Positions 2,227 through 60,944 of a stretch of DNA of 64,000 nucleotides are shown here, piece by piece. Origin of the DNA: a virus. The stretch covers positions 1-64,000 of IMG/VR virus record IMGVR_UViG_3300027911_000001; one strand, 5' to 3'. The position numbers and the translations under genes are program-made. A model generated the notes under the pieces. The model did no database searches and was not told the origin of the DNA. It worked only from the letters and a program-made list of their open reading frames with translations. Position 1 is the stretch's first letter. Every line of letters begins with the position of its first letter.

Positions 2227-2493
2227 TTATCCTTTTACGGGCAAACCTCTGGGACCTTTAACGCGTGGAGATTTCATATCAATCATCGCAATTTTTCCAG
2301 TAGTAGGATCTAAGAATTTTTTTTGTCCTTTAGCGTTCACAGAACCAATAGGATCTGGAGTTTTCGCTATATGCGGGCTAGGACTTTTTGAGGGAAGTTT
2401 TTTAACTGATCCGATTGCCCCCTCGGCTTGCGCTTCGGGGTTACTGCTGTGGGGCTCCGAACGGTCCCTCCTTGGGAACCGCAGGTTGCTCAT
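2227..2493 (-). CDS. small basic Gly/Pro/Lys-rich protein, start uncertain
   Basis: Only ORF filling the 214 nt between the stop of 2441..4090 and the start of 1376..2224. The first in-frame ATG is at 2493. The track ORF runs to a TTG at 2652, in the +1 frame over the acidic tail of the upstream gene. Confidence 0.35.
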   Translation of the reverse strand: MSNLRFPRRDRSEPHSSNPEAQAEGAIGSVKKLPSKSPSPHIAKTPDPIGSVNAKGQKKFLDPTTGKIAMIDMKSPRVKGPRGLPVKG

Positions 2494-9752: not shown

Positions 9753-9846
9753 ATTTTTTGCCCCTAAAAAGTCTTGACAAAGCAGCCCGAAAAGGGTAAG
9801 CTTTTAAGTAAAGATTGGTTGTTTCGACCGATCGGAAGGTAACTAT

Positions 9847-11356: not shown

Positions 11357-11428
11357 TATTTTTCTCCTTTAAAGTTTGAATCCCGTCGCTAAACGGGGGA
11401 ACATGTTCATTGTAAAGATTGATGTTTT

Positions 11429-15059: not shown

Positions 15060-15118
15060 ATCAATATAATCCATTACATACGTGCAAAAAGCCAATCTTT
15101 ACCTTAACATGTAAGTAT

Positions 15119-24570: not shown

Positions 24571-24666
24571 GAAAAATCCTTTTAATATTAAACTTATGTA
24601 ATTTTTACGTACCACAAAGACTCACTCACAAACAATAAGACTCTAATAAAATTTTCAATTTTTGAA

Positions 24667-30956: not shown

Positions 30957-30976
30957 TCTCCTTGTTAAAATTCACT
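30957..30976 (-). promoter_or_regulatory. conserved leader AGTGAATTTTAACAAGGAGA (copy 1)
   Basis: A 20-mer including the SD. Near-identical copies at 35888, 36344 and 36879. Confidence 0.6.
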
Positions 30977-31005: not shown

Positions 31006-32016
31006 TTAAAGGGCTACCCATCCAGTAGCCGAAGTCCAATGATATCCTCCGGCTACCCAGGTAGAGTAAACATTAGATCCAGATCCCCAATTAATTTGCG
31101 ACCATGTGGTTCCATCTCCTGTCACTGAGAAGTTACAGCCACTAGAATCTGTGTCGATATAACTTCCATTTGGAATAAAAGCAAAGCGAGTATTTTGGCC
31201 TGATACTGTCTCAGAGAAAGAAGCTAAGATCTGTCCACCTTGTAACCCAAGCAATGTTTCTTTCCAAGGCGAAGAATTCGCTCCGCAAGGTTCAATCGCT
31301 TGAACTAGACTAAACGAGACCGTACCTCCAGAACTACCGTTAGTGCCGTTAGTTCCGGCCTGGCCATTTTGCCCATTAGCGCCGTTATTTCCATTACAAA
31401 CGTAATCTGTCTCTGAATGCGTTGAGTCAGTTAGCGTCAGATCAAAACCGCCATTGGTGCAATGAGTGCCATTGTCTGTAACTATACTAAAAGTTGTACT
31501 CACGCCATTCGTACCATTGGTGCCGTTTGTGCCATTTGACCCATTGCTTCCATTTGACCCGTTGGTTCCGTTCGATCCGTTGCTGCCATTAGATCCATTG
31601 CAAACATAAGTCAATCCTAATAGTGATTCGCCTGTATCTAATGTTCCATTATTGTTTAGATCTTGAAAGTTCTCCAATTGCACTCCGCCATTGGGGCAAT
31701 TAGCGTTACCTACCGATAGTTGAGTCGTTTTAATGCCAGCCCCATAACCTTGGGCACCGTTAGTTCCATTGGTCCCAGCGTTACCCTGAGTGCCTGCTGC
31801 CCCTGTCTGCCCCGTGGCTCCTTGGTCTCCAGTGTCTCCTTTAGATCCCGATGCCCCAGGGGCACCACTCGGCCCTACTACTGGGACTAATTCCTTTCTT
31901 TTACCGCATCCATTCAATCCTAACAAGATAAAGATAATTGCCATTACTGAAAAAACGATTCCCAGTCCCGACACAATAAGAGCCGCTTGATTGGTCTGTT
32001 CTTTAATTATTTTCAT
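31006..32016 (-). CDS. collagen-like repeat lipoprotein
   Basis: N-terminal TM helix plus the lipobox-like LLGLNGC. Three blocks of G-X-Y triplets: GPSGAPGASGSKGDTGDQGATGQTGAAGTQGNAGTNGTNGAQG, (GSN/GTN)n, and GNNGANGQNGQAGTNGTNG. Confidence 0.75.
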   Translation of the reverse strand: MKIIKEQTNQAALIVSGLGIVFSVMAIIFILLGLNGCGKRKELVPVVGPSGAPGASGSKGDTGDQGATGQTGAAGTQGNAGTNGTNGAQGYGAGIKTTQLSVGNANCPNGGVQLENFQDLNNNGTLDTGESLLGLTYVCNGSNGSNGSNGTNGSNGSNGSNGTNGTNGTNGVSTTFSIVTDNGTHCTNGGFDLTLTDSTHSETDYVCNGNNGANGQNGQAGTNGTNGSSGGTVSFSLVQAIEPCGANSSPWKETLLGLQGGQILASFSETVSGQNTRFAFIPNGSYIDTDSSGCNFSVTGDGTTWSQINWGSGSNVYSTWVAGGYHWTSATGWVAL

Positions 32017-32041
32017 ATCATTCTCCTCATTTTATGGTTAT

Positions 32042-32057
32042 TGCAGGCATTGTGCCA
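32042..32057 (-). promoter_or_regulatory. sigma54-type -24/-12 promoter (a)
   Basis: Minus strand reads TTGGCACAATGCCTGCAA, with GG-N10-GC spacing. It lies about 26 nt upstream of ATG 32016, with GAGGAG between. Confidence 0.6.
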
Positions 32058-32086
32058 ACCGTAACTATTTGGTTTTACTACATTGT

Positions 32087-32099
32087 GACAAAAATTGTC
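32087..32099. promoter_or_regulatory. GACAA-AAA-TTGTC inverted repeat upstream of promoter (a)
   Basis: An identical 13-mer occurs at 33457-33469. Confidence 0.5.
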
Positions 32100-32111
32100 T
32101 GTATATTTATT

Positions 32112-32507
32112 TTACGCTGCATTGTTCTTAGACACTGTTAATCCGTAGCAACTCCTCTTTGGGAGTTTAATCCGTTCTTTTAGTTTAGCATAACGCTTTA
32201 TAAACGCTACATGTTTTTTACCTTTTATAATATGCCTATCTTCTAACTCATAAACCTTAATTTCAAATCCATCGTAATAAGAGATATTGGTTAATTCCTC
32301 TCTATTAAACCAATTCGTTAACTGCGTTAAGCTCTCGAATCCATAAAAATATTCTGCGGAGACGTAGCTAGGTAAAATAATCCCATCTGCATGAGGTGCT
32401 GGATGGGTAGGCAATTCATGCTTTCTTTCAGTCCATGCTAAGCTGCCCATCGATATCCCAGAATATGGGCCTTGCCCGTAAAAGCCCTCAATTCTATATA
32501 CCCTCAT
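32112..32507 (-). CDS. hypothetical protein
   Basis: 131-aa ORF with AGGAGGA upstream. Confidence 0.7.
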   Translation of the reverse strand: MRVYRIEGFYGQGPYSGISMGSLAWTERKHELPTHPAPHADGIILPSYVSAEYFYGFESLTQLTNWFNREELTNISYYDGFEIKVYELEDRHIIKGKKHVAFIKRYAKLKERIKLPKRSCYGLTVSKNNAA

Positions 32508-32515
32508 AAGTCCTC

Positions 32516-32650
32516 CTATTTTGGTTTAAACTCAGGCCATTTTCTATAGAATATCTTTAGTGTTTCTACGCACAACTGACATACAAATCGGTCCGATGGT
32601 TTAGAAGTATGAAAGACCTTATTGCACGTTTCGCATTCGCACTCTTTCAT
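32516..32650 (-). CDS. zinc-finger mini-protein (44 aa)
   Basis: Manual translation gives MKECECETCNKVFHTSKPSDRFVCQLCVETLK.... Confidence 0.45.
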   Translation of the reverse strand: MKECECETCNKVFHTSKPSDRFVCQLCVETLKIFYRKWPEFKPK

Positions 32651-32803
32651 CTAATACTCTCTCATTCTAGCTTCATGATAAGCCACAGTCAACAGTGGAT
32701 TAACTACCAAAAACACAAAGAATAGAATTGGATTAGTGGCCATTAGGTCCGCCGTTGCAAATCCCATAAGCGCCCCTTGTGCGATCATAATTAAGTTAAT
32801 CAT
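32651..32803 (-). CDS. small membrane protein (50 aa)
   Basis: Manual translation gives MINLIMIAQGALMGFATADLMATNPILFFVFLVVNPLL.... GAGGAG upstream. Confidence 0.45.
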   Translation of the reverse strand: MINLIMIAQGALMGFATADLMATNPILFFVFLVVNPLLTVAYHEARMREY

Positions 32804-33005
32804 TTTGTTTCTCCTCTTGTTTAATATCCTTTTTAATCGAATCGATCACCACATCTAAAGAACCAATGAAGCTAAATGTTTCAACGATTGTCTTATATAT
32901 TCTATGCCTACGCCAATCATCTTCAGGATAGCTAAACTCCACGCCCCTTATTAAAGCCTTAGCCTGCATTAGGTCGTCGAGCCTTTCCTTATTGGTTCTA
33001 ATCAT
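32796..33005 (-). CDS. small hypothetical protein
   Basis: 69-aa ORF. Confidence 0.6.
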   Translation of the reverse strand: MIRTNKERLDDLMQAKALIRGVEFSYPEDDWRRHRIYKTIVETFSFIGSLDVVIDSIKKDIKQEEKQND

Positions 33006-33160
33006 AAATCTACCCCAGAACTCTTTATGGCCATATCCCTAATCGATTCGTAGTCGTTGCTATGGGCTACCTCGACATTATTTACCGATAGCGTAAAGCC
33101 CCCAGAATCGTGGGCCACACATACATCGATACCCTTATTGATAATTTTAAAAATATACAT
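33002..33160 (-). CDS. small hypothetical protein (52 aa)
   Basis: Manual translation gives MYIFKIINKGIDVCVAHDSGG.... ATGA-coupled downstream. Confidence 0.45.
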   Translation of the reverse strand: MYIFKIINKGIDVCVAHDSGGFTLSVNNVEVAHSNDYESIRDMAIKSSGVDL

Positions 33161-33171
33161 ACTTCCCTTTC

Positions 33172-33342
33172 TTAATTTGTTTCATCTTTCAATCGTTTAT
33201 ATACGATACTTCCACGCATAGTAACTCCTAGCAAATACGCAAAAGCTAGCAGCCATCGACCGTCCGTGAAATAGCACCCCACTAAGAATCCCCAAGTCGC
33301 CAATAGTACGACATTAAAAATTTTACTTGTCTTATTACTCAT
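33172..33342 (-). CDS. small membrane protein (56 aa)
   Basis: Manual translation gives MSNKTSKIFNVVLLATWGFLVGCYF.... AAAGGAG upstream. First gene after sigma54-type promoter (b). Confidence 0.45.
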   Translation of the reverse strand: MSNKTSKIFNVVLLATWGFLVGCYFTDGRWLLAFAYLLGVTMRGSIVYKRLKDETN

Positions 33343-33411
33343 ACCAATCTCCTTTCAAAAACTATCCCTGTTCGCAATCCGTTTATTCAGATCGCTTGCA
33401 TTTATATCTAT

Positions 33412-33427
33412 TGCAGCCGACGTGCCA
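33412..33427 (-). promoter_or_regulatory. sigma54-type -24/-12 promoter (b)
   Basis: Minus strand reads CTGGCACGTCGGCTGCAA. Confidence 0.6.
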
Positions 33428-33456
33428 GTCCTAAATATTTGGATTTATTAGGAAGC

Positions 33457-33469
33457 GACAAAAATTGTC
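33457..33469. promoter_or_regulatory. GACAA-AAA-TTGTC inverted repeat upstream of promoter (b)
   Basis: Same 13-mer as 32087-32099, about 30 nt upstream of the -24 element. Confidence 0.5.
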
Positions 33470-33573
33470 CGTAGAACTTTTATTCATTTGATATTTCTTA
33501 GACAACAAAACGAAAAAGCGCCCTAGTTTAAAACTAGAGCGCTGATTATCGAACTATAAAGTTTTTAGTTCTT

Positions 33574-34116
33574 CTAAAAGGACCGCTGGCCCAACGTGGC
33601 CCTAATTTTGTCCAAGTCCATTTCGGTGGCATTTGAGGGTAAGATAACTTCGGCAATCAAGCCGCTACTCAAAGTGATAGAGTAAAGTTTTCGCTCGATT
33701 TTTAAGACCACTTTTCTTGAGCGTCTTTTTTTAATCACCGGCTGAATTGGCTTGATGGCCACTACCTTAGGGACTCGTTTGGCCAATTCTCTAACTTCGT
33801 TCTCTTTTCCTTCTATAGCTACCTTTGCAATGCTTTTAAGCGAATAGTACCATTGGAACTTGTCAGGTCCTCCACGACGACCATAAACGATGGTGCCAAT
33901 TCCTAGGTCTTGTAGATCTTTCCAGAACTTTTGAAAATCCTCATCTACTACCTTCTCTCCCATGCTCACTAATTGCTGTTTTGCAAGAGTAATGTTAGAA
34001 TACCCTCTAGCGCGCTCCCTGAGCGCCAGCATGAGCATAGTCACCACGGCAGTATGGGATGTATTGGTTAAGGCTTTGAGTTTTTCACTGTTCATTTTTA
34101 CGATTTGGTTTTCCAT
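33574..34116 (-). CDS. hypothetical protein
   Basis: 180-aa ORF downstream of sigma54-type promoter (c). Confidence 0.75.
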   Translation of the reverse strand: MENQIVKMNSEKLKALTNTSHTAVVTMLMLALRERARGYSNITLAKQQLVSMGEKVVDEDFQKFWKDLQDLGIGTIVYGRRGGPDKFQWYYSLKSIAKVAIEGKENEVRELAKRVPKVVAIKPIQPVIKKRRSRKVVLKIERKLYSITLSSGLIAEVILPSNATEMDLDKIRATLGQRSF

Positions 34117-34175
34117 TTTCTTATTTCCTTCTTTTTATTTAGCGTGTCGTTATTGACTCGCTTGCTTGTACTATA

Positions 34176-34191
34176 TGCACCAGGCGTGCCA
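34176..34191 (-). promoter_or_regulatory. sigma54-type -24/-12 promoter (c)
   Basis: Minus strand reads ATGGCACGCCTGGTGCAT. Confidence 0.55.
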
Positions 34192-34247
34192 TATATAACT
34201 ATTTGATATTATTGACATGCCCATTATGACACCATAGAGAAATTATA

Positions 34248-34616
34248 TCAAGTTCTTTGTGCAGTGACACTTTTTGTACAGTTTATCAAAGAGAACAGCT
34301 GATCCATCTCGAATGGTTTTAACAGCACGTCGTCCATATGCAGTTTGTCGGCTACTTCCTTAGCTAATTTTTTTGGCATTGCCGTAAAAAGAACCGTGTG
34401 ACAATTTTTGTAATGGCTCCGGCAATAAGCTATAGCTTCCGTAGAGTCCTCCTTGGTCAATCTCATATCCGCCAATAAAAGCAACGGCTCATTTGACCGC
34501 ATAAAATCTATGGCCTCTTCACAGCTAGAGGATACCTTGTATTTGGCATCAAGCGAATCTAAACACAGGCTTAATATCTCTTTAAGTGCATCGTCGTCTT
34601 CTAGTATTAAAATCAC
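34248..34616 (-). CDS. stand-alone response-regulator receiver (REC/CheY-like) domain
   Basis: ILILEDDD (acidic pocket), LLLLADMRL (phospho-acceptor Asp position), LFTAM (Thr) and LLKPF (Lys). GTG start 7 nt after GGGAGA. Confidence 0.75.
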   Translation of the reverse strand: MILILEDDDALKEILSLCLDSLDAKYKVSSSCEEAIDFMRSNEPLLLLADMRLTKEDSTEAIAYCRSHYKNCHTVLFTAMPKKLAKEVADKLHMDDVLLKPFEMDQLFSLINCTKSVTAQRT

Positions 34617-34815
34617 TTCTTAGTCTCCCTATCATATGCAGTACGTTTCGCATAAGCGTACCTCTATCCATGCTCTTATAAACGCACTTCGTGCGCGAAT
34701 TTTTACCCCAATAGATTGTAACCTGATGGCCTTCATCAACTGGAGATAGCCTGATTGCTATGTGATTGATAGATATAAAAGAAAAAAGGGACTTGTCAAC
34801 AGAATTTGTTTTCAT
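34582..34815 (-). CDS. questionable small ORF
   Basis: 77 aa with no SD. Overlaps the REC start by 35 nt. Confidence 0.35.
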   Translation of the reverse strand: MKTNSVDKSLFSFISINHIAIRLSPVDEGHQVTIYWGKNSRTKCVYKSMDRGTLMRNVLHMIGRLRSDFNTRRRRCT

Positions 34816-34846
34816 TAGACAAGCGTTAATCGAAAAAATACTTTTG

Positions 34847-35032
34847 TCAATTAGTTAAACAGTACTCGTCCCTGAATAAATCGAAGGCCTCTCCATTCCA
34901 TATGCCAAATTCATGTTGCAAATCAAATTCAATTAGGGTATCCTTCGGAATTGTTACCTCTGTGGCTCCCCGCATATAGGTAACGTTTTTTGTAAGGTTG
35001 ACTGTTATTAATTGATCCATATATTCTCCCAC
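34847..35032 (-). CDS. small hypothetical protein
   Basis: 61-aa ORF downstream of a sigma70-type promoter. Confidence 0.55.
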   Translation of the reverse strand: MGEYMDQLITVNLTKNVTYMRGATEVTIPKDTLIEFDLQHEFGIWNGEAFDLFRDEYCLTN

Positions 35033-35040
35033 CCTATAAC

Positions 35041-35069
35041 AGAGTAAAATGGTATAAAATAAAAGTCAA
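35041..35069 (-). promoter_or_regulatory. sigma70-type promoter (TTGACT-17-TACTCT)
   Basis: Read on the minus strand. Precedes 34847..35032 and the REC gene. Confidence 0.5.
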
Positions 35070-35128
35070 CCCAAAAAACACTTTTGAAAATTGAATCTAT
35101 AGCAAATGAAAAATTGACGGTAGGGGGC

Positions 35129-35611
35129 TTACTCAAAACCCTTTGCGATGTCTTGAATGACTGAGTCTAGAGCTATGGATTTGGAAGATGCACATCTACC
35201 CCATATAACCAGGCCTTTGAAGTTTATAACCATTTCGTTGCGCTCTTTTAGCCGTTCGCCTAACCAATCGGAAACTATCCAATATTCTTGCGCTTCTCGG
35301 CAAACCTCGGATTGTTTGGTTTCTTTGTTTCGAGCTTCACAGCAACATTCGTCCAGGTCTTCTTTGTGCCTCGAACTGTAACCACATTGAGAACATTGAT
35401 ACACTGTCCCATGGGACACACGCACGAGATCGCTCGCATATTTCTGGTCTCTTAGGAGTTCTTTTACCATGTTCGAAACGCAGTAATGGACTTCATGTAT
35501 AGCCAGCCGATAAGCCCTGATAGATAGTTCCATATTAGTATGCCTCGAATGACCAGACCTTAAAATATTTAAAATGTCAACGGAAATTTCACTTTTGGTA
35601 TTATTGCCCAC
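35129..35611 (-). CDS. hypothetical Cys-rich protein
   Basis: 160-aa ORF containing CSQCGYSS...CCCEAR. Confidence 0.7.
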   Translation of the reverse strand: MGNNTKSEISVDILNILRSGHSRHTNMELSIRAYRLAIHEVHYCVSNMVKELLRDQKYASDLVRVSHGTVYQCSQCGYSSRHKEDLDECCCEARNKETKQSEVCREAQEYWIVSDWLGERLKERNEMVINFKGLVIWGRCASSKSIALDSVIQDIAKGFE

Positions 35612-35882
35612 CGAATCCGATTTTGAAGTCTACCCCACTAGTCAAATGCGGCAGTCTCCTGATATGTGACTCCCTATCTTGATAGATATGCTTGACTTCA
35701 ACGTGTTCGGTCATGTCTAAAAACTTGCCCGCGTCGATGTCTTCCTCAAGATAGGCATAGCGCTTCGATTCGTAACTGCACCGAGTAAACACATGGCCCT
35801 TGGCTTGTAACTCCCTGATTAGTTTTAGCGGTACTCTTAACCAACCGTGTCCTGAATCACTATAAGATTTTAATTTAAGCAT
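35601..35882 (-). CDS. hypothetical protein
   Basis: Start moved to ATG 35882 after AAAGGAG. The track's GTG extension lies inside the conserved leader repeat. Confidence 0.65.
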   Translation of the reverse strand: MLKLKSYSDSGHGWLRVPLKLIRELQAKGHVFTRCSYESKRYAYLEEDIDAGKFLDMTEHVEVKHIYQDRESHIRRLPHLTSGVDFKIGFGGQ

Positions 35883-35887
35883 AGATA

Positions 35888-35920
35888 CTCCTTTGTTAAA
35901 ATTCACTTTTAAAATTCACT
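35888..35920 (-). promoter_or_regulatory. conserved leader AGTGAATTTTAACAAAGGAG plus an extra AGTGAATTTT half-copy (copy 2)
   Basis: See 30957. Confidence 0.6.
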
Positions 35921-35954
35921 CTTACGTACAGTCAATTTTTGACCACCAGGGCTA

Positions 35955-35998
35955 CCGATATCTATCGGGACACTGTGTCCAGATTAATGTCCAGATTA
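35955..35998. repeat. palindrome CCGATA-TC-TATCGG followed by direct repeat TGTCCAGATTA x2
   Basis: Palindrome at 35955-35968. Direct repeats at 35976-35986 and 35988-35998. All lie in a 259-nt intergenic region. Confidence 0.7.
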
Positions 35999-36141
35999 CT
36001 ACCTACCTAGTTTTGCTAGCACATGAGTAGGATAAAATAGCGGACCAACCGAAAAGCATAGAAGTCTCTCCACACTATCCTTTGGTCGAGTTATTCTATA
36101 CATGGCTAGGCTAGAATAAACCCAATACAAAACTAAGTAAA

Positions 36142-36339
36142 TCATTTTGACCTCTTTTTGTTAACTTTAGTCATTTCCTTACACATTATGTTAGCCATAA
36201 TCCTAACATGGTCAAAGGGATTTTTGCCTGTTTCGCCTGCTCGATATGATTCTATCGACATTGCCTTAAGCTCGTCGCATATCTTGGCTAGGGATACTTC
36301 GTTGCAGTCTTTTTTATTAACTACCGTTTTCTTATCCAT
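36142..36339 (-). CDS. small hypothetical protein
   Basis: 65-aa ORF with the conserved leader upstream. Confidence 0.6.
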   Translation of the reverse strand: MDKKTVVNKKDCNEVSLAKICDELKAMSIESYRAGETGKNPFDHVRIMANIMCKEMTKVNKKRSK

Positions 36340-36343
36340 ATTA

Positions 36344-36363
36344 TCTCCTTGTTAAAATTCACT
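36344..36363 (-). promoter_or_regulatory. conserved leader (copy 3)
   Basis: Plus strand reads tctccttgttaaaattcact, identical to 30957-30976. Confidence 0.6.
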
Positions 36364-36394
36364 TTTTATAAACATTGCTAATTAAACTCAATTT

Positions 36395-36874
36395 TTAGCC
36401 CTCCCTATAGGTCCCCAGCGCATCGCTATATTTAATTGGATTTTTGACGGCTAGCCCTGTTACCTTGCGAGCATAGTTTACTCCGTCCGTCCAATCTTTA
36501 GCCGATCCGTCGCTTGACACCCTAACACAGTCTCCTAGTCTATGCTTGAGAATAGCCAAACATGCAACGACTACTAAGTCATAAGGCTTTTGCGCTGTTT
36601 TGCAAAAATTAAACCCCTCATTGGCTAAGTTTTCGTTAAAATGCTCTCTTAGCACGAAAGTCTCATGACCGTCGTCGCCCTTGCCGTTTACATTGATGCC
36701 GCCATATTGGCCTATCTTGGTATGCGCTGAATATCCGGATAGTCCGCCATTCTCGGCATAGTATCGTTTGATTACCCTTTGACAGTCTTCGATAGCGCGT
36801 TGATACTTATTCTCAATTGCCGTCGCTTGACTTCTCGATGCCGCTTTGAAAGTAAAATAATGTGTATAGCCCAT
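36395..36874 (-). CDS. hypothetical protein
   Basis: 159-aa ORF with the conserved leader upstream. Confidence 0.75.
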   Translation of the reverse strand: MGYTHYFTFKAASRSQATAIENKYQRAIEDCQRVIKRYYAENGGLSGYSAHTKIGQYGGINVNGKGDDGHETFVLREHFNENLANEGFNFCKTAQKPYDLVVVACLAILKHRLGDCVRVSSDGSAKDWTDGVNYARKVTGLAVKNPIKYSDALGTYREG

Positions 36875-36878
36875 ATAG

Positions 36879-36898
36879 TCTCCTTGTTGAAATTCACT
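36879..36898 (-). promoter_or_regulatory. conserved leader (copy 4, 1 mismatch)
   Basis: Plus strand reads tctccttgttgaaattcact. Confidence 0.6.
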
Positions 36899-36939
36899 TT
36901 TAAATTAAGTGAGTTAGTTTGTTAAAAATTGACCTATCC

Positions 36940-37131
36940 TTACCCTGTTAAACTATCGTCAATGGTTAGCTCGCTTTTAAGGTATATCTCGCCATTGTTT
37001 AGCTCATAGCCATATTCAAAATGAGCGCTTGACTCGCCACAATGCCCTAGGCTTGACTCATTGACTTGGGTCATACAATAAGGACATACTAGGACCTTGT
37101 TAGTTACTTGACTAATATCTATTCGTTTCAT
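36940..37131 (-). CDS. small Cys-containing protein
   Basis: 63-aa ORF with CPYC...HC. Confidence 0.55.
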   Translation of the reverse strand: MKRIDISQVTNKVLVCPYCMTQVNESSLGHCGESSAHFEYGYELNNGEIYLKSELTIDDSLTG

Positions 37132-37134
37132 TGG

Positions 37135-37266
37135 TTAGTCTCCTTTTAGTTTAATTAACAGTCTTAAATATTTAAACGGGCAATAGTATGGACATTTATC
37201 GTCGTGCATAGTTTCAGGCAATGCGCCACAATGCCCGCATTTTGACGTATATTGAATTCTAATCAT
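37135..37266 (-). CDS. Cys-rich mini-protein (43 aa)
   Basis: Manual translation gives MIRIQYTSKCGHCGALPETMHDDKCPYYCPF.... Confidence 0.45.
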   Translation of the reverse strand: MIRIQYTSKCGHCGALPETMHDDKCPYYCPFKYLRLLIKLKGD

Positions 37267-37286
37267 AGTCCTATCTCCTTATTTTG

Positions 37287-37961
37287 TTATGCTACCCTAT
37301 CCCATGCCGTGTTAGACCATTTTTTAGCATGGTGAAAGACTAAACCGACCTTGTTAGACTCGCCCATAGCCGCCACCATGTCGTCAATTGTACCGTTAAC
37401 ATATCCCGCTTGAGTTAATAGCTCGATTGACTCGAAAACTCGACTATGCCTATCCGTGTTAACGTCAATCAATGCGTCTTGTTTTCCGCCGAAACTATAA
37501 ATTAAAGTAAAGTTAGCAGGGATAGCGCCTAGTTGAGTTAATTGTTTGAATAACTTTACTTGCTTAGTGTACGCATAGAACGACACGCGAAAATCACTCT
37601 TAAAATGTCGCATGACTTCAAGCCATTTATTGACATAGGCTAGGTCGTAAAAATCCCCACTATCGTGAATTCTGATTTTTAGTTGTTTAACCGACCGCTT
37701 TTTTAACCATAGGTCAATTTCACTAATCATAACGCTCGCAAAATCATCTTGTTGAGTCAATGCGAGCTTTGATTCGTGCGCTCGCCTAACATTGCTAAAA
37801 AGATAGGTACCTGATCGAGCATAACAGCCTTTCGCGCATGCCCCTGCTTGAGGACATGTCCTAAAACCGTTTTGACTTAAAAAGGCTGGGATAGTCCAAT
37901 TGACGACGACTAAACCGTTTTGACTTGACTTCTTCATTTTTGTATTTTGAACTAATAACAT
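37287..37961 (-). CDS. conserved Cys-cluster protein, possibly GP88-like
   Basis: The LLVQNTKMKKS...TCPQAGACAKGCYA N-terminus resembles the phage gene-product-88 family as remembered. Not verified. Confidence 0.4.
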   Translation of the reverse strand: MLLVQNTKMKKSSQNGLVVVNWTIPAFLSQNGFRTCPQAGACAKGCYARSGTYLFSNVRRAHESKLALTQQDDFASVMISEIDLWLKKRSVKQLKIRIHDSGDFYDLAYVNKWLEVMRHFKSDFRVSFYAYTKQVKLFKQLTQLGAIPANFTLIYSFGGKQDALIDVNTDRHSRVFESIELLTQAGYVNGTIDDMVAAMGESNKVGLVFHHAKKWSNTAWDRVA

Positions 37962-38182
37962 AACTTACCCTTTCGTTTTTGTTTAGCGTTTATAGAGTTT
38001 TCTAGTCTCTCTATTAGTTTCGTTAGATATCTCTCATGATATTCTAACACGTCAAAGTCATTATGTCCGCATAGGTCTATGATACCATCCGATTGATCTA
38101 TGGACCTCTCTATGTCCGATAATTCACTTTTAGTCAATGGCTCTCGACTATCCAAAAATTGACTAGGTAGGGGATTAAACAT
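37952..38182 (-). CDS. small hypothetical protein
   Basis: 76-aa ORF. Its leader AAAGGAGTCAATTTTATG is shared with 38200..38772. Confidence 0.6.
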   Translation of the reverse strand: MFNPLPSQFLDSREPLTKSELSDIERSIDQSDGIIDLCGHNDFDVLEYHERYLTKLIERLENSINAKQKRKGKLCY

Positions 38183-38199
38183 AAAATTGACTCCTTTGG

Positions 38200-38772
38200 T
38201 TATGCAACCCTTTTTTTGGTTTTTGCCTTAGTCTTAGTCTTAGTCTTAGTCTTAGTCTTAGTCTTAGTCTTAGTCTTTTTAACTTTGGGTAAAGTCATAT
38301 GCTCGCCGTTGACGATAGTCATAACGTTATTTTTAATTAATATAGTCCCGATATCGTCAAAATTCTCGCCGCGCCATTGCACGCAACCCGTTAGCTCATA
38401 GCCCTTTGGTTTTAGGACCTTATTGATTATGTATTCAATCCATGCAATATAATTGTAAAACTTTTCGCCACCATCCCATGCAATGCCCGTGCCATTGTCA
38501 TTAGGTCGCCATTGACACCATAAACCGGGTTGAGTTCTAGGCGGTCGGTTATGATCTAAAACCGTGTCGTCGTCGTCTTGACCTGCAAAACCGTCGCCGT
38601 TGACAAAAAACTCGCCGTCAATGCCGTAGTCAATGCCCGTTTTAGCTTTTAGTTTTGCACTATCTCTTAGCATGCGTCTAGTCTCATTCAGTTTGACTAA
38701 AAAACCATGCGTGTCGAGGTCAAGCGGTTTATTAAGTTTAAATGTCCCGTTAAAATCCGTAGTATATCCCAT
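38200..38772 (-). CDS. hypothetical protein with C-terminal (Lys-Thr)n tail
   Basis: 190-aa ORF whose tail is encoded by a hexanucleotide microsatellite. Confidence 0.75.
   Translation of the reverse strand: MGYTTDFNGTFKLNKPLDLDTHGFLVKLNETRRMLRDSAKLKAKTGIDYGIDGEFFVNGDGFAGQDDDDTVLDHNRPPRTQPGLWCQWRPNDNGTGIAWDGGEKFYNYIAWIEYIINKVLKPKGYELTGCVQWRGENFDDIGTILIKNNVMTIVNGEHMTLPKVKKTKTKTKTKTKTKTKTKAKTKKRVA
38227..38274. repeat. (CTTAGT) x8 perfect microsatellite inside a CDS
   Basis: Encodes KTKTKTKTKTKTKTKT on the minus strand. The unit length of 6 keeps the reading frame. Confidence 0.95.
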
Positions 38773-38786
38773 AAAATTGACTCCTT

Positions 38787-39005
38787 TTAGTTTAGTTTCG
38801 ATAGTTCAATTTCAAGTCTATCTCTTAGGCCATACCATGACCTAAGAGCGTCTTTTTGGTTTTTATGTCCCGACTGCGTTAAGTATCCCGCAATTTTAAA
38901 AGCATGGCGTGGCGTTAGATCAATATGCAAGGTATATGTCCCATTGACTTTTTTGGTTATATGTCCACGCGCTAAGCCAAAAATACTAGATAGATAGTAT
39001 GTCAT
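38787..39005 (-). CDS. small hypothetical protein
   Basis: 72-aa ORF. Confidence 0.6.
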   Translation of the reverse strand: MTYYLSSIFGLARGHITKKVNGTYTLHIDLTPRHAFKIAGYLTQSGHKNQKDALRSWYGLRDRLEIELSKLN

Positions 39006-39008
39006 AAC

Positions 39009-39407
39009 TCACGCCACTCTCTTTTTGTTTTTAAAATCGACCGCGATAACTTCACACAATGGATTATCTAATTGTGCGGCTAGTGCGGCGCCCATAATAG
39101 TCTCTTTACATCCAAAATCAGGCCTAACAATGTTATCAGGGGCTTGACGCCATGTCGCGTCATTATACCATAGGTCAATCCATTTAATACCGCCACGCGC
39201 ATTGTCCCTATCGGCTACGGTAGGCTGATAGGCTTTTACGCCATACTCTCGACTAACAGCGTTTGAAATATCAATGCCATACAATTGACCTAACTGATTA
39301 GCTTTTTTGAGTTTTGCCCATACTTTCGCGTCAAGCCTAACTCTCACCTTGACGGTATCTTGATAACTTCTCTCGACTGAAACTATCCTAAAATCAAAAC
39401 TTAGCAT
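39009..39407 (-). CDS. hypothetical protein
   Basis: 132-aa ORF. First gene after sigma54-type promoter (d). Confidence 0.7.
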   Translation of the reverse strand: MLSFDFRIVSVERSYQDTVKVRVRLDAKVWAKLKKANQLGQLYGIDISNAVSREYGVKAYQPTVADRDNARGGIKWIDLWYNDATWRQAPDNIVRPDFGCKETIMGAALAAQLDNPLCEVIAVDFKNKKRVA

Positions 39408-39448
39408 ATATCCTACCTTTCGACCTATCCGGTCACACTATAGACTAT

Positions 39449-39464
39449 TGCATAGGCTAGGCCA
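39449..39464 (-). promoter_or_regulatory. sigma54-type -24/-12 promoter (d)
   Basis: Minus strand reads TTGGCCTAGCCTATGCAA. Confidence 0.5.
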
Positions 39465-39578
39465 AACGAATCAATGTGATATTATTGACTAATCAATGCA
39501 ATAAGCATTTTTTAACCTGTAGAACTTTTATACACTGTGACAATTTTTGGCAACGATGCGAAACTAAAAGCCTTTTAT

Positions 39579-39595
39579 ATGACAATTATTGTCAT
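39579..39595. promoter_or_regulatory. perfect palindrome ATGACAAT-T-ATTGTCAT about 115 nt upstream of promoter (d)
   Basis: 8-bp arms. Overlaps the stop codon of 39592..40011. Same GACAA/TTGTC core as 32087 and 33457. Confidence 0.5.
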
Positions 39596-40011
39596 GCGCT
39601 TTTTGCCTCAATGCGTTGACGCTCGCTATTAAAGTCATTCCCTAGGGCTAGCCTTAATTTTTTGTTTATGTCCATGCATTCCCTATATGTGTCAAGCGCT
39701 TTTAGGCTATCGTTACTATAACCAAAGTTATCGCAAAAATCATTGAATGACTCACTACCTGCTTGACTATCTGAAAACAGGCATTCTAAGACTTGATCAA
39801 TTTCCGGTACGTGTACCCATTCTTTTTCGAGCGAGATAGTTTTAATAGCCGGTTTAGTCCAAAGTCTCTTACCGAAAAGGTTGACCTTACCCGTTGCGTG
39901 ACCTAGTCCGGTCTTATAATCAAAACTAACGCCATTGATCATAACATGCCATTTATAATGTGCCCATTCTTTTGATTCGTTTCTACCTGTAAAATTTATT
40001 GAGTATTTCAT
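39592..40011 (-). CDS. hypothetical protein
   Basis: 139-aa ORF. Confidence 0.7.
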   Translation of the reverse strand: MKYSINFTGRNESKEWAHYKWHVMINGVSFDYKTGLGHATGKVNLFGKRLWTKPAIKTISLEKEWVHVPEIDQVLECLFSDSQAGSESFNDFCDNFGYSNDSLKALDTYRECMDINKKLRLALGNDFNSERQRIEAKSA

Positions 40012-40031
40012 AAAATCCCTTTCAAGGAGTT

Positions 40032-40080
40032 ATAGGGCATAACAGTTTGGCTTAGTCGATTGACTCCTGCTATGCCCTAT
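40032..40080. repeat. 10-bp inverted repeat ATAGGGCATA / TATGCCCTAT (29-nt spacer)
   Basis: Lies in the 78-nt gap between 40090..40878 and 39592..40011. No T-run follows. Confidence 0.6.
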
Positions 40081-40089
40081 TAGGTGGGT

Positions 40090-40878
40090 TTAGGCGGCAA
40101 GTTTTAAAACCGCATCAAATAAACCTTGGTTAAAATCCATGTCTTTTACTGTATTGGGTTTAATAGTCCTAGTTGACATATGTCTAACATTGTTTTGACC
40201 ATTGTTATCAATGCTTTGTGTCGTATATGCTACCCGACCGCCTAGCATTGAGTTTTCTTGCACTACGTTAAAAACCGACCACGCATCATTGCCGGTATCT
40301 TCAGCGCGTTTAGGAGTCAATAGACGATGCCTGATATTCAAAGCGTTTTCAGGAGTTAGCAATTTAATAGCGTCTTGAGCTAACTGCTCTTTTAGTTCAG
40401 GAGTCAACTCAATGCCTTGCAATTTTTGGATAGTCTCACCTAGTCGTTTTTGAATATCAAGGGCATGCGCAACGGCTAAGTCAAGATTTTCGTAAGTATC
40501 GCCATTGTGTCGAATCCCCTCGCTGAAAAATGACTTGCCTGCTACCATACCGTTTGAACACACTAGGCGATAGATACCGACTAAAATTTCAGTTAGTCCC
40601 CTACCCATATGAGGATTTTTGACTAATAGGTCTAAAAAGATCGGTTTTCCATCCTTATCATGCGAAACTACCGGACCTCTAAACCTGCTAATCGTTTTTT
40701 GAAAGTCTACCTTATCAGCGTGGCGAGCGTTGCCCGTTTTAATACTAACTAAACTTAGGCCATGTTTTTGCATGGTATCGCCTATTGACGACGCTTGAAT
40801 GACCTTGTATTTTTCAGATACAAGACTATGACGCTGATTTTGCACGTAACTACCTGAAATGTTTACAATGTTTGACAT
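40090..40878 (-). CDS. hypothetical protein, possibly DUF932-like
   Basis: Start moved to ATG 40878. The overall pattern (C-terminal NVVQENSMLGG) resembles DUF932 as remembered. Not verified. Confidence 0.55.
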   Translation of the reverse strand: MSNIVNISGSYVQNQRHSLVSEKYKVIQASSIGDTMQKHGLSLVSIKTGNARHADKVDFQKTISRFRGPVVSHDKDGKPIFLDLLVKNPHMGRGLTEILVGIYRLVCSNGMVAGKSFFSEGIRHNGDTYENLDLAVAHALDIQKRLGETIQKLQGIELTPELKEQLAQDAIKLLTPENALNIRHRLLTPKRAEDTGNDAWSVFNVVQENSMLGGRVAYTTQSIDNNGQNNVRHMSTRTIKPNTVKDMDFNQGLFDAVLKLAA

Positions 40879-40991
40879 AAATACTCTTTTCTGCACGTTA
40901 TAGCGTGCGGTTTAACTAAACAATAGGATACTTTTTAATAAAACACAACTAAATAAAACGACATAGACTAAAACCAAGTAACTTTTATGAC

Positions 40992-41147
40992 TCATATAGT
41001 TACCCAAACGGTATCATTTTGGCTAGGCCTTGGGATAGTCCCTTGTAGCTCGCCGTCAATAAACTTAGCCAAAACATTGCCTTGACTATCTATAAGGTAC
41101 TCCTCGCCGATACCCGTTAGGTCTTTTAGTTGTCCTATTCTGATCAT
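40992..41147 (-). CDS. small hypothetical protein (51 aa)
   Basis: Manual translation gives MIRIGQLKDLTGIGEEYLIDSQGNVLAKF.... AGGTGAG upstream. Confidence 0.45.
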   Translation of the reverse strand: MIRIGQLKDLTGIGEEYLIDSQGNVLAKFIDGELQGTIPRPSQNDTVWVTI

Positions 41148-41278
41148 AACTCACCTGAATCATAATAGCTATCGTGTTCGTCGATCATTTCAAACATGGC
41201 TAGCAATTCATTTTCTGTAAAATCATCGTTATTTAGTTCTAAGGTAACGGGATATGTGTTGTCGCTATAAGTTTTCAT
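41144..41278 (-). CDS. small acidic protein (44 aa)
   Basis: Manual translation gives MKTYSDNTYPVTLELNNDDFTENELLAMFEMIDEH.... ATGA-type overlap downstream. Confidence 0.45.
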   Translation of the reverse strand: MKTYSDNTYPVTLELNNDDFTENELLAMFEMIDEHDSYYDSGEL

Positions 41279-41288
41279 AAAAGCCTTT

Positions 41289-41387
41289 CTAGTTAGTTTT
41301 GGTTAAAGTTTTAGCAATTTTTGCCGCGAATACTGCAATGGTTAAAGTATTAAGGAATATTAAAAACAAAATAAATGAGTTATCCAT
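41289..41387 (-). CDS. membrane mini-peptide (32 aa)
   Basis: Manual translation gives MDNSFILFLIFLNTLTIAVFAAKIAKTLTKTN. AAAGGAGAC upstream. First ORF after sigma54-type promoter (e). Confidence 0.4.
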   Translation of the reverse strand: MDNSFILFLIFLNTLTIAVFAAKIAKTLTKTN

Positions 41388-41429
41388 AAAGTCTCCTTTG
41401 TAACCTTGTTGGTTACGGTTATAATATAT

Positions 41430-41445
41430 TGCATAGGCGATGCCA
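41430..41445 (-). promoter_or_regulatory. sigma54-type -24/-12 promoter (e)
   Basis: Minus strand reads TTGGCATCGCCTATGCAA. The leader contains the hairpin GTAACC-aacaa-GGTTAC. Confidence 0.55.
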
Positions 41446-41714
41446 AACGGACTAATGAGAGTAAAATCAGGGACTAATCAATGTGATATTTTAGTGTGTC
41501 ATTGAGTTAACCGTCAAAGCCTATATAAGGGCTAACCATAGTTAATTTAGTGTAGAACTTATATACACTAGTGACAATAAATGGCAAAGCATTGATATCA
41601 TAGCGTAACGTAGTGACAATTTTGGGCATATACTTGTAACATCGCGTTATTATAGGCATTTATAGGCGCTTTTTAAAGACGCTGTAAAAGGTACGTCAAG
41701 GATACGGTTTAGGT

Positions 41715-41776
41715 CTAGTCCCAAAGGTCAAACTAAGCTAGTTATATGAGCGTCAAAATAAACCGTTTGGGACTAG
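41715..41776. repeat. 11-bp inverted repeat CTAGTCCCAAA / TTTGGGACTAG
   Basis: Arms at 41715-41725 and 41766-41776. Confidence 0.8.
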
Positions 41777-41843
41777 CATAGGCATAGACTTAGGGTAGCG
41801 TTGCGGTCATTATACTGGTCAAGTGCTGTTATGAGGTCCTTTG

Positions 41844-41873
41844 CGCGTCTAAGACGCGGCTATAAGACGCTGT
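41844..41873. repeat. palindrome CGCGTCT-A-AGACGCG plus AAGACGCTGT repeat
   Basis: AAGACGCTGT also occurs at 41676-41685. GCGTCT occurs at 42006-42011. Confidence 0.75.
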
Positions 41874-42587
41874 TATCTAGTCCATTCCCTAGCTATAGTC
41901 AATCTTTACTATAAGGACTAACCTTAGCGTGATATAAGGCAATAGTTTTTTGATTTTTACTCTCGACCTTTTAAACCTGCACGCTAGCGCGATGCGGGCA
42001 TTTTTGCGTCTAGTACCCTAGGCTAGGCCATTGAGGTCATTCCATCAAGTCTCATATAGTAGAGATAGGTCAAGGCTAGCAATGTCCTGTTTTATCAAAA
42101 CCGGCTATTTTTAATGATATCAACTAGTTAGTATAAATCTATGGGCGACGACATACCGACCGCATCATATATGCAACGCTTTTTTAGGACAATATAAAGA
42201 GAGCGTCCATATAACATATAGGTCATGACTAAGTAATAGGCAGTGTCCTGACACAGGCAAAATAATAATCATATCAATAGGTTAAGTATCTATCAAAGGC
42301 CTTGACAAAGCTAGCCGCACGACACAGTCTAACTATATAGTATCATTAGGGTATTTGATAAAAATAACGAAAACCGGGGAATTCAATCATTACGAGTTGT
42401 TAATCCCAATTATTACAGACACGCAATCTCTAATAAAATTTTTCCAAAAATATTTTTATAATTTTTCTGGATCCTATTCCTAATATAACGCCTCCCTTAC
42501 AGAAAGGGCTCTAGAATCGATTTTAATCCCTAGCACAATCTCCTTAGGTCCAAATTGATAAAACCCCTTATAGCCTCTTACAGGGCT

Positions 42588-42596
42588 TATGATATA
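42588..42596 (+). promoter_or_regulatory. TATGATATA box 8 nt before an SD-less ATG
   Basis: See 24914. Confidence 0.45.
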
Positions 42597-42604
42597 CAGG
42601 CAAT

Positions 42605-59037: not shown

Positions 59038-59163
59038 AAGATCTCCTAAAGATAGGGTATAATGCCTAATCTGGGATGTCAACGAAATTAAATGTCTTTG
59101 TAACCTATTGTTTATGTTAATATATCCGGTCTTCAAAACTAAAGTCTCAATCTTTACTTAAGC

Positions 59164-59950: not shown

Positions 59951-60934
59951 ATGAACTCTAAGGTCATCAAGTCAATTCTCAATAAGAAGCTAAATCAATG
60001 GGTTGAGTCTATAAAAGACGACAAAGTCAAACAACTTGTTAAAAAGAACACAATTGTAACCGGCGGATCCATCGCCTCCATGCTTTTGGGCGAAGAATAC
60101 AAAGATATCGATGTTTATTTTAAAGATAAGCAGACGACTTATTTGGTGGCCCAATATTACGCTCAAGAATTCAATAAAGCTCATCCGGATAAAGTAAAAG
60201 CCTTCGTTGTCGATGGAGAAGTTGATTTTAGTAATGGAACATTGATCAACCCAACTCTGATGCGCGAGTTCAGTCACAATGCTGGCGTACTTAGGAATGT
60301 TACCCCAGATAGGGTAAAGATCCTAATTAATTCTGTAGGCGTAGTAGCTGAAAATGAAGATGTATTAAAAGCTCCCTTCGAGGATGCCGTTCAAGCTATT
60401 ACTGATGCAGACCATATTGATGAAAATGCCTTAGAAGGTGTGGGAGATAAAAAAGATCCCTATCGAGCTGTATTTTTAAGTAGCAACGCTATTACGCTGG
60501 CAGACAAAATTCAACTAATTGTCAGATTCTATGGTGATCCTGAAAAGGTTCACGAATCTTTTGATTTCGTCCATTGCACCAATTATTACGATTACGGTAC
60601 TAAGGAATTGGTCTTAAAAAAAGAAGCCCTCGAATGTTTGATGGCTAAAGAACTTCGGTATATGGGTTCAAAATATCCCGTTTGCTCTATTATAAGGACC
60701 AGAAAATTTATTAAGCGCGGTTTTAATATTAATGCAGGTCAATATCTGAAGATGATGTTCCAGATATCTCAATTGGATCTAACCAATCTAGATGTTTTGG
60801 ATGAGCAACTTGTTGGTGTAGACAGCGCATACTTTAGTCACCTAATTAATGCATTGAGAACAAAACAAGAGTCCGATCCGACCTTTACAGTAGACAGCAC
60901 TTATCTTGGTACACTAATCGATAGAATTTTTTAA
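59951..60934 (+). CDS. pol-beta-superfamily nucleotidyltransferase-like protein (CCA-adding/poly(A)-polymerase-like head)
   Basis: IVTGGSIASMLLGEEYKDIDVYF fits hG[GS]-x9-13-DhD. The later FLSSNAITLAD resembles the RRDxTxNA block. Confidence 0.4.
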   Translation: MNSKVIKSILNKKLNQWVESIKDDKVKQLVKKNTIVTGGSIASMLLGEEYKDIDVYFKDKQTTYLVAQYYAQEFNKAHPDKVKAFVVDGEVDFSNGTLINPTLMREFSHNAGVLRNVTPDRVKILINSVGVVAENEDVLKAPFEDAVQAITDADHIDENALEGVGDKKDPYRAVFLSSNAITLADKIQLIVRFYGDPEKVHESFDFVHCTNYYDYGTKELVLKKEALECLMAKELRYMGSKYPVCSIIRTRKFIKRGFNINAGQYLKMMFQISQLDLTNLDVLDEQLVGVDSAYFSHLINALRTKQESDPTFTVDSTYLGTLIDRIF

Positions 60935-60944
60935 GGAGCAACCC

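Follow-up and report, generated by a model that had tools for sequence, protein, structure and literature searches.

Promoters that depend on sigma-54 (RpoN) are silent until fired by an ATP-driven activator, and they normally serve tightly signalled bacterial responses. A 64,000-nt stretch of viral DNA (IMG/VR virus record IMGVR_UViG_3300027911_000001, positions 1 to 64,000, in the following called the window) raises the question of whether a phage may use such promoters as well, as an initial annotation had pointed to five sites of the −24/−12 type, here named a to e, at the heads of leftward operons between positions 32,042 and 41,445. We find that these sites belong to a family of conserved cassettes of about 125 nt which is shared with related phages, and that they are likely to be sigma-54-dependent promoter cores, whose activator we did not find.

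All five sites are present on the minus strand, and the claimed GG-N10-GC spacing is kept in 5/5 of them. The more general pattern TGGC-N8-TGCA occurs six times in the window against 1.50 expected, a number reached in 0 of 100 dinucleotide shuffles, and other viral loci, 2.78 Mb in all, have a background of 1.66 matches per 64 kb. All six matches lie on the minus strand within 32.0–41.5 kb and five are intergenic, while the sixth, missed by the initial annotation, is located inside the open reading frame 38200–38772. The sites were also scored with a sigma-54 weight matrix, which is approximate and was made from a consensus, reportedly mrNrYTGGCACG-N4-TTGCW in Barrios et al. 1999; the scores were 16.0 bits for a, 18.2 for b, 18.2 for c, 19.5 for the intragenic site, 13.3 for e and 10.3 for d. 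At a threshold of at least 16 bits the window has four hits, in comparison to 0.21 expected from first-order Markov simulations (maximum 2 in 300) and 0.26 on the basis of related phage DNA (1.47 Mb). With the threshold at 18 bits, three hits stand against 0.02 expected, and the related DNA has none. Since intergenic DNA makes up only 9.7% of the window, chance falls far short of explaining three strong hits (a–c) that all lie between genes and in the orientation of the gene that follows. Enrichment over randomised sequence and correct orientation were thus obtained, for a–c by score. By score alone d and e are not significant, as 30 window sites reach 10 bits. The description of all five sites as near-consensus therefore holds for a–c (16–18 bits) and not for the weaker d and e (10–13 bits), which are credible as promoters only because they are members of the cassette family. 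The placement was borne out for all five: each site is intergenic and upstream of a gene led by a Shine-Dalgarno sequence, with 25, 69, 59, 41 and 42 nt (a–e) from the A of TGCA to the start codon, and the core is followed by TA (TGCA-ATA in a, b, d and e, TGCA-TA in c).

When 18 sites were aligned on TGGC, a cassette of about 125 nt emerged, whose positions are given here relative to the predicted +1. Its core reads TGGCAY-N6-TGCA(A)TA. Best conserved after the core is an upstream box, ..CTAAAAGTTCTAC or in dyad-like form ..TTAGTCAnTGACTAAAAGTTCTAC, at about −99 to −69. It is followed by an A/T-rich palindrome centred at about −62 (GACAATTTTTGTC in a and b, GGTTTTnAAAACC in relatives) and, at about −44 to −32, by a box similar to the consensus of integration host factor (IHF), which is WATCAANNNNTTR. 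The CAAATAKTTA box that the initial annotation had noticed upstream of a–c is indeed common to these three sites, and we read it as the IHF-like core. In about half of the cassettes GCA stands exactly at the predicted +1, 12 nt after the −12 C, and in 17 of 19 cases the predicted leader, downstream of this +1, contains the Shine-Dalgarno sequence. The information content of 11 sites, from the window and from L065 (a phage described below), is confined to −26 to −22 and −14 to −11; similarly, TGGCAC and TGCA are unchanged among the paralogues a–c, and it is the spacers between these two boxes that have diverged. We also took the upstream box alone as a start. Of its 23 occurrences, 10 are followed by TGG-N10-GC, eight at a distance of exactly 43 nt and two (d included) at 54–55 nt. 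As 54–55 nt equals 43 nt plus one helical turn, the face of the helix is preserved. The sigma-54 consensus, and an upstream activating sequence (UAS) at 70–150 bp, are described in the literature (PMC3844500, PMC12316311). In the cassette, the box at about −99 to −69 and the IHF-like box (predicted binding) between it and the core show the enhancer-plus-IHF arrangement of sigma-54 promoters. Judged from sequence, the putative UAS, the IHF-like box, the −24/−12 core and the helical phasing form a textbook enhancer-dependent architecture.

Three other readings of single elements were tried and rejected. TGTC/TTGTCAC boxes as PilR- or GlrR-type sites were enriched, their likeness to such sites being a tentative one, and in the wider alignment the conserved element turned out to be the ..CTAAAAGTTCTAC box. 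As for the upstream box as a promoter of a T3/T7-like single-subunit polymerase, such an enzyme was found neither in Mx1 (the cultured relative introduced below), nor by Pfam scans in the window, nor among the annotated genes of the flanks. Finally, the pairing needed for TGGCA..TGCA to act as an RNA structure is present in site c only.

The window is part of a phage, as it encodes a major capsid protein, tail fibre proteins, a tailspike and a protein with a lytic transglycosylase (SLT) domain. Its nearest cultured relative is Mx1, which infects Myxococcus and whose capsid protein shares 52% identity with that of the window. Because the window crosses both ends of a 164,751-bp metagenome contig (JGI 3300006162 Ga0075030_100000005), the genome is complete and either circularly permuted or terminally redundant. 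From 41.4 kb down to about 26 kb of the window, about 15 kb of small early or accessory genes are arranged in successive leftward units headed by the sigma-54-like sites. Ordinary promoters of the form TTGACA-N17-TAnnnT occur at 9.8, 24.6, 48.2, 50.7 and 59.9 kb, which indicates that the host uses ordinary sigma-70 promoters. A megablast search with 31–42 kb of the window against cultured phages gave no match, the cassette profile (nhmmer) found no further copy in the window, both flanks or Mx1, and Mx1 has one isolated −24/−12 hit and no cassette.

Relatives were reached instead with a protein of 180 aa encoded immediately downstream of site c, that is, with no DNA pattern, so that this set (L276–L279) is free of retrieval bias for the core. 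Its members L276 (a 171-kb contig), L277 and L279 (a 112-kb contig) encode proteins 42–63% identical to those of the window, and the order DUF932, GP88, response-regulator receiver gene and 180-aa gene is kept in full in L276 and in part in L277 and L279. Each of the three carries 3–5 or more sigma-54-like sites, intergenic and on the gene strand. Some of these are syntenic: a site lies between the receiver and 180-aa genes in the window (c), L276 (9913) and L277 (5327), and another lies just after the 180-aa gene in the window (b), L276 (10665), L277 (6072) and L279 (10907). In IMG/VR the cassette pattern retrieved 33 stretches, some of them on contigs of 155–177 kb with a capsid protein 78–82% identical to that of the window, and a profile search of 24 loci yielded 42 cassettes, nine of them on one 85.6-kb contig. 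In total there are about 50 non-redundant cassettes in about 20 contigs of Mx1-related phages, whose size is about 165–177 kb. The core counts in 48 of them are T47 G48 G48 C46 A43 Y48 ... T45 G48 C48 A47, with variable spacers, an invariance that is partly built in, since part of the IMG/VR set was seeded by a pattern containing TGGCAY-N6-TGCA. The −24 GG and the −12 GC are both present in 48 of 50 related cassettes, one degenerate copy reading TAGCAC and another GTGAA. By sequence, the cassette is a characteristic promoter element of a widespread uncultured group of Mx1-related phages, and it is not peculiar to one genome. In four of these phages a cassette stands directly ahead of the rIIA-rIIB operon (L276, 12585–14738; L277, 8028–10178; L299, 10262–12564; L302, 6683–8817); no rIIA was found in the window.

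Outside this group, L065, an otherwise unrelated phage which has only the GP88-family gene and a 63-aa gene in common with the window, carries seven non-coding sigma-54-like sites around those genes, scoring up to 20.5 bits, and L252 has a 16.7-bit site 49 nt ahead of its DUF932 gene. Except for these two, no site clusters were found among 80 DUF932-centred and 35 GP88-centred loci, and searches of IMG/VR with the DUF932 protein or a 334-aa protein returned no close relatives. The exact composite CAAATAKTTA-N4-TGGCAC-N6-TGCA had 0 hits in IMG/VR, and 10 hits against about 2 expected in bacterial genomes, mostly intergenic and upstream of genes, the genes downstream often being for secreted proteins. 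The sources were Glaciecola, an alphaproteobacterial metagenome-assembled genome (MAG) that matches site c at 22 of 23 nt, and two Bdellovibrionota MAGs; an enhancer-binding protein (EBP) gene lies 3.6 kb from one of the hits. Besides this, the Glaciecola MAGs L265, L267, L269 and L272 have a repeated sigma-54 promoter region of about 100 nt, which includes a perfect IHF box and stands ahead of several genes for secreted proteins.

The cassettes of the window, all on the minus strand, differ in completeness, as a, b and d are strong hits of the profile and c and e are partial ones. Cassette a (32036–32152; 63.3 bits in nhmmer) has the core TGGCACAATGCCTGCA at 32042–32057, the IHF-like box CAAATAGTTA at 32062–32071 and the palindrome GACAATTTTTGTC at 32087–32099. 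With a predicted +1 near 32031 it would give a 15-nt leader containing the Shine-Dalgarno sequence, and it heads the unit that runs from the ATG at 32016 leftward to about 26 kb. The product of the first gene of this unit (31006–32016, minus strand) is a collagen-repeat/DUF7151 protein; it has a signal of the lipoprotein type (..LLGLNGC) and a homologue in L277. Cassette b (33406–33523; 74.1 bits in nhmmer) combines the core TGGCACGTCGGCTGCA at 33412–33427, the IHF-like box at 33432–33441, the palindrome GACAATTTTTGTC at 33457–33469 and the upstream box TAAAAGTTCTAC at 33471–33482, exactly 43 nt ahead of TGGCA. It heads a unit of seven small genes from 33342 to 32112. Cassette c (34176–34270; partial in nhmmer, 22.1 bits) has the core TGGCACGCCTGGTGCA at 34176–34191, a perfect IHF consensus, TATCAAATAGTTA, at 34196–34208 and a diverged upstream half with TGTCA repeats; its unit is the single 180-aa gene, 33574–34116, and is closed just ahead of cassette b by an intrinsic terminator at 33517–33543 (minus strand), a 12-pair stem followed by TTTTCGTTTT.

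Cassette d (39443–39595), whose core TGGCCTAGCCTATGCA at 39449–39464 is weak alone, reaches 48.6 bits in nhmmer as a cassette. Its upstream box TAAAAGTTCTAC at 39519–39530 stands 54 nt ahead of TGGC, and AATTGTCAY boxes are found at 39537–39545 and 39579–39587. The unit behind it runs from 39407 to about 34248 and includes the GP88-family gene and the receiver gene. Cassette e (41425–41625), with the core TGGCATCGCCTATGCA at 41430–41445 and the box TATAAGTTCTAC at 41552–41563, is a paralogue of d with insertions. Alignment of the two, with a 48-nt gap, confirmed the indel-bearing duplication noted before. It heads the unit 41387 to 39592, which includes the DUF932 gene, and it forms the left edge of a gene-poor stretch of 1.3 kb (41279–42604) between divergent gene blocks, in which several sigma-70-like hexamer pairs and one copy of CAATCTTTAC (see below) are present; this region may be a control or origin region. 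The sixth sigma-54-like site, TGGCACGGGCATTGCA at 38479–38494 (minus strand), is without cassette context in the profile search. It may have arisen by chance from the codons for N-G-T-G-I-A-W, or else it serves the GP88 sub-cluster as an internal promoter. In Salmonella, sigma-54 sites inside genes are common (PMC3844500). The 190-aa protein in whose gene it lies (38200–38772, minus strand) ends in a (KT)n repeat at its C-terminus.

Considering these data together, the sigma-54 reading passed every in-silico test applied, namely enrichment, strand, placement, conservation and upstream architecture. By sequence, we assign a–c with high confidence to sigma-54-type promoters, and d and e would be of the same kind by membership in the cassette family. 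This phage group probably ties a block of early/accessory genes to the host sigma-54 machinery. In such a scheme, a closed complex of host RNA polymerase and sigma-54 would occupy the core. It would be opened by an ATP-dependent activator that either binds the upstream box, as enhancer, or is recruited there, a bend at the IHF-like site bringing the activator over to the core. Initiation would then take place in a region that is often GCA, 12 nt after the −12 C. The recognition by sigma-54, the binding of IHF, the start site and the activator itself, whether of host or of unseen phage origin, are predictions in this scheme.

The activator was looked for in several ways. The initial annotation had stated that the window encodes no AAA+ activator, and indeed no EBP signature was found there. 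One generic AAA ATPase of the window (60945–61925), which is conserved in Mx1, was ruled out as an EBP, as the EBP loop is absent from it. A search beyond the window for GAFTGA-containing activators, which had been proposed, covered the flanks and related-phage DNA, where none was found. EBP signatures and the RpoN box were also not found in Mx1, and no EBP was found in the neighbourhood of the sigma-70-family factor in two relatives. Among EBP homologues, those in a cultured-phage collection were mostly from mislabelled bacterial contigs, and 162 were found in IMG/VR. The 80 EBP-bearing viral loci that were retained have no contig in common with the relatives of the window, and there was no EBP near any cassette. 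Several of the IMG/VR contigs, of about 48–53 kb (L162–L165, L170, L179–L184), have an internal NtrC-family EBP gene followed at once by a strong sigma-54 site, TGGCACGATTCTTGCT, of 16–19 bits, which resembles a phage-borne module of activator and promoter; it is not related to the window.

Two neighbouring genes may take part in regulation. The receiver gene (34248–34616, minus strand) closes unit d, directly upstream of cassette c; it encodes a stand-alone response-regulator receiver (Pfam Response_reg, 9e-13) in which the acidic pocket, D50, T79 and K100 are intact and which is conserved in L276, L277 and L279. A homologue search with this protein returned only itself, and a 99%-identical variant was not located. 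The 180-aa gene (33574–34116, minus strand) adjoins the receiver gene in relatives too, and its product has an N-terminal winged-helix fold in the predicted structure (pLDDT 73). The Foldseek matches of this model are weak (E 0.015–0.2), all of them to DNA-binding domains of the Fur, PadR, ArsR and MarR types, and the model makes the protein a candidate DNA-binding partner of the cassettes. The pair, which resembles a split response regulator, occurs also in L276 (9467–10543), L277 (4880–5949), L279 (9578–10585) and L302. Both proteins are candidate modulators, which would bind at the upstream box or at the palindrome; the ATPase required by sigma-54 cannot be supplied by either of them.

A number of observations weigh against promoters of the sigma-54 type. 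Neither GAFTGA, nor an EBP-type Walker A, ELFGH, an arginine-finger motif or an RpoN box was found in about 0.43 Mb of phage-group DNA (the window, both 10-kb flanks, L276–L279 and L280–L313), a sample that does not include about 80 kb of this genome and the host, and the called genes of the window, flanks and relatives have no relevant Pfam domain. The upstream box is uniform across phages of 36–54% GC, which argues for one conserved binder, be it an unseen phage protein or one conserved host EBP, and such uniformity is more readily accounted for by a phage-encoded binder than by diverse host EBPs. The Myxococcus lineage, on its part, is rich in EBPs (PMC12316311). In the related cassettes T is rare at −15, unlike in the textbook TTGCW, and two L279 cassettes have the Shine-Dalgarno sequence upstream of the predicted +1. 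To this should be added the approximate matrix, the partly built-in core invariance of the IMG/VR set and the sigma-70-like hexamers found at three of the sites (see below).

What else could the cassettes be? The main rival is a transcription system of the phage itself, in which a phage sigma factor or activator (the conserved sigma-70-family factor or the winged-helix 180-aa protein) reads the cassette and the likeness to sigma-54 promoters is coincidental or convergent. We consider this unlikely, although it has points in its favour: the whole cassette of about 125 nt, and not the core alone, is conserved among these phages despite their range of GC content, the family has a core sigma-70-family factor, the conserved receiver and winged-helix gene pair sits among the cassettes, and the searched phage-group DNA gave no EBP. 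However, a pair of short boxes on one face of the helix, whose GG and GC are separated by exactly 10 bp, is sigma-54 geometry and not that of any factor of the sigma-70 family, as these need 16–19 bp between elements; the core fits the extended sigma-54 consensus and lacks the symmetry expected of a site for a dimeric operator protein. In addition, the composite of IHF box and core is found upstream of bacterial genes as well, and the more natural target of a phage sigma factor is CAATCTTTAC, which stands ahead of structural genes. Promoters of the ordinary sigma-70 type, with TTGGCA as a variant −35 and an A/T-rich −10 placed 16–18 bp downstream, with or without an activator, are in our view improbable. 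A consensus scan does give TTGGCA-18-TAAAAT for a (10/12) and TTGGCC-17-TATAGT for d (9/12), by eye e and b can be read as TTGGCA-17-TATAAC and CTGGCA-16-TATAAA, respectively, a, d and e reaching 9–10 of 12 matches, and clear TTGACA-N17-TAnnnT promoters are present elsewhere in the window. Site c, however, is without a usable −10 hexamer, the −10-like hexamers of a–c lie at unequal distances from the conserved boxes, and most cassettes of L065, L252, L276, L277 and L279 have no −10 hexamer at 16–18 bp. The invariant TGCA is left unexplained, and the upstream box, which was tried as a −35/−10 pair and rejected, has a spacer of 14 nt.

The sites might also bind sigma-54 holoenzyme without ever being activated, so that closed complexes sequester polymerase, block or insulate sigma-70 promoters or mark the boundaries of units. 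The failure to find an EBP in the searched DNA speaks for this, as do the sigma-70-like hexamers that overlap a, d and e and those just upstream of c and e, and regulatory roles have been proposed for non-promoter sigma-54 sites of Salmonella (PMC3844500). A conserved, phased upstream box and an IHF-like site suit activation, though, and not mere occlusion. The +1 region also shows conservation, the layout of the leaders accommodates a Shine-Dalgarno sequence, and no promoter-like elements other than the cassettes stand ahead of long gene runs. We hold this reading to be less probable still than sigma-70 promoters. As for chance matches in A/T-rich intergenic DNA, which the low scores of d and e and the number of window sites at 10 bits could suggest, we give them hardly any credit: they are refuted by the scores, with the three hits of at least 18 bits far above expectation, by the intergenic and co-oriented placement, by syntenic conservation in diverged relatives and by the box-to-core geometry.

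Two other motifs are repeated in the window. CAATCTTTAC occurs in six exact copies against about 0.2 expected for a 10-mer, at 9808–9817 and 11412–11421 on the minus strand and at 15093–15102, 18370–18379, 41900–41909 and 59148–59157 on the plus strand. Five of the six copies are intergenic, at least four of these five are co-oriented with the next gene, and three lie in the structural-gene region. It is probably a late-promoter class and a candidate target of the conserved sigma-70-family factor of the phage family. The leader GTGAATTTTAACAAGGAG is found directly ahead of four start codons (30958–30975, 35889–35906, 36345–36362 and 36880–36897, minus strand), four copies against 0.06 expected, and could be a translation-initiation region, a processing site or an internal promoter. 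Elsewhere, a 549-aa protein encoded in the structural region (2441–4090, minus strand) has an N-terminal minimal CRISPR polymerase (mCpol) domain (Pfam PF18182, 1.5e-18), and Mx1 has an annotated 'nucleotide cyclase' elsewhere in its own genome. At 59951–61925 (plus strand) a Gad2-like nucleotidyltransferase (PF26128) is paired with the generic AAA ATPase mentioned above, and CCCGTT is repeated four times in tandem at about 24640–24665, in the intergenic region at 24.5–24.8 kb.

If the cassettes are sigma-54 promoters, dozens of genes in large phages would stand behind a standard sigma-54 cassette, and the phage would either read the signalling state of its host through a host activator or bring an activator of a new kind. 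This would be a third way for phages to time their genes, beside the remodelling of sigma-70 and phage-encoded polymerases or sigma factors. A wider proposal, which we put forward tentatively and with some doubt, is that Mx1-related phages of about 165–177 kb have adopted the host sigma-54 polymerase, by way of a standard enhancer-IHF-core cassette, for a whole temporal gene class, the early/middle accessory block and rIIA-rIIB, with non-canonical activation. Either one conserved host EBP would be hijacked or a new phage activator would be used, and the receiver and winged-helix proteins could tune the activation. Such 'sigma-54 appropriation' would be the counterpart of the sigma-70 appropriation by MotA/AsiA in T4. 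If a phage factor reads the motif instead, this would be a striking convergence on sigma-54 promoter geometry. Since the cassette has a small size and strong conservation and can be moved into reporter systems, the question would become open to testing; the cassettes would, moreover, supply natural enhancer-dependent parts. Strong −24/−12 matches could also help to assign hosts, because the host lineage must carry rpoN.

How do the cassettes compare with known systems? An IHF site between UAS and core is familiar from the sigma-54 promoters Pu of the TOL plasmid, nifH and glnHp2. The cassettes are similar to bacterial sigma-54 promoters in TGGCAY-N6-TGCA with its 10-bp gap between GG and GC, in the WATCAANNNNTTR-like box between the core and an element at about −70 to −100, in the helical phasing of the upstream box (43 or 54–55 nt) and in their position 25–70 nt ahead of genes. 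They differ in that they belong to a lytic-type phage genome of about 165 kb in which no EBP gene was seen, that −15 is rarely T, that they form a repeated, mobile-looking cassette (five copies here and at least nine on one related contig), and that the enhancer, uniform between copies, stands unusually near the core. Enhancer-dependent promoters themselves are already known; what is new here is their probable occurrence as a phage promoter class without a visible EBP, and the full-text literature that we searched did not describe a repeated sigma-54 cassette for any phage.

The initial annotation held systematic use of sigma-54 promoters by a phage to be rare. This needs amending in two respects, as the feature spans a whole group of related phages and not one genome, and as a precedent exists. 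Pseudomonas phage YuA was reported to rely on sigma-70 and also on sigma-54 (Ceyssens et al. 2008, as cited in PMC10914365), and its GenBank record NC_010116 has three promoter-trap fragments annotated '-24/-12 consensus'. YuA is alike in being a virulent phage with several promoter-trap fragments of the −24/−12 type, and unlike in that the fragments lie in the structural region and show no shared cassette, IHF-like box or upstream box; with our approximate matrix, the three fragments gave no plus-strand hit of at least 10 bits. Its support from promoter trapping is experimental, while the sites of the window rest on sequence and comparison, with much stronger motif matches. We regard YuA as a weaker published precedent for sigma-54-type promoters in phages. 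Bdellovibrio phage phi1422 encodes a sigma-54-type regulator (PMC3391216), and like the IMG/VR contigs of about 48–53 kb it is a phage genome tied to sigma-54. However, these genomes are unrelated in sequence to the window group, and they carry an activator with one or two promoters, whereas the window group has many promoters and no visible activator.

A further comparison is that with the middle promoters of T4, which combine a MotA box with a −10 element and at which sigma is appropriated by MotA/AsiA. No MotA or AsiA homologue turned up in the phage, no search having been aimed at them. In both systems a repeated, phage-specific upstream box stands at a fixed distance from a core element of the host polymerase, and in both the promoters head early or middle units, among them rIIA-rIIB in the relatives of the window phage, and form a distinct class beside sigma-70 early promoters and a late motif. 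The difference lies in the sigma factor: T4 remodels sigma-70 and the core of its middle promoters is a −10 hexamer, whereas the cassettes described here have the geometry of sigma-54.

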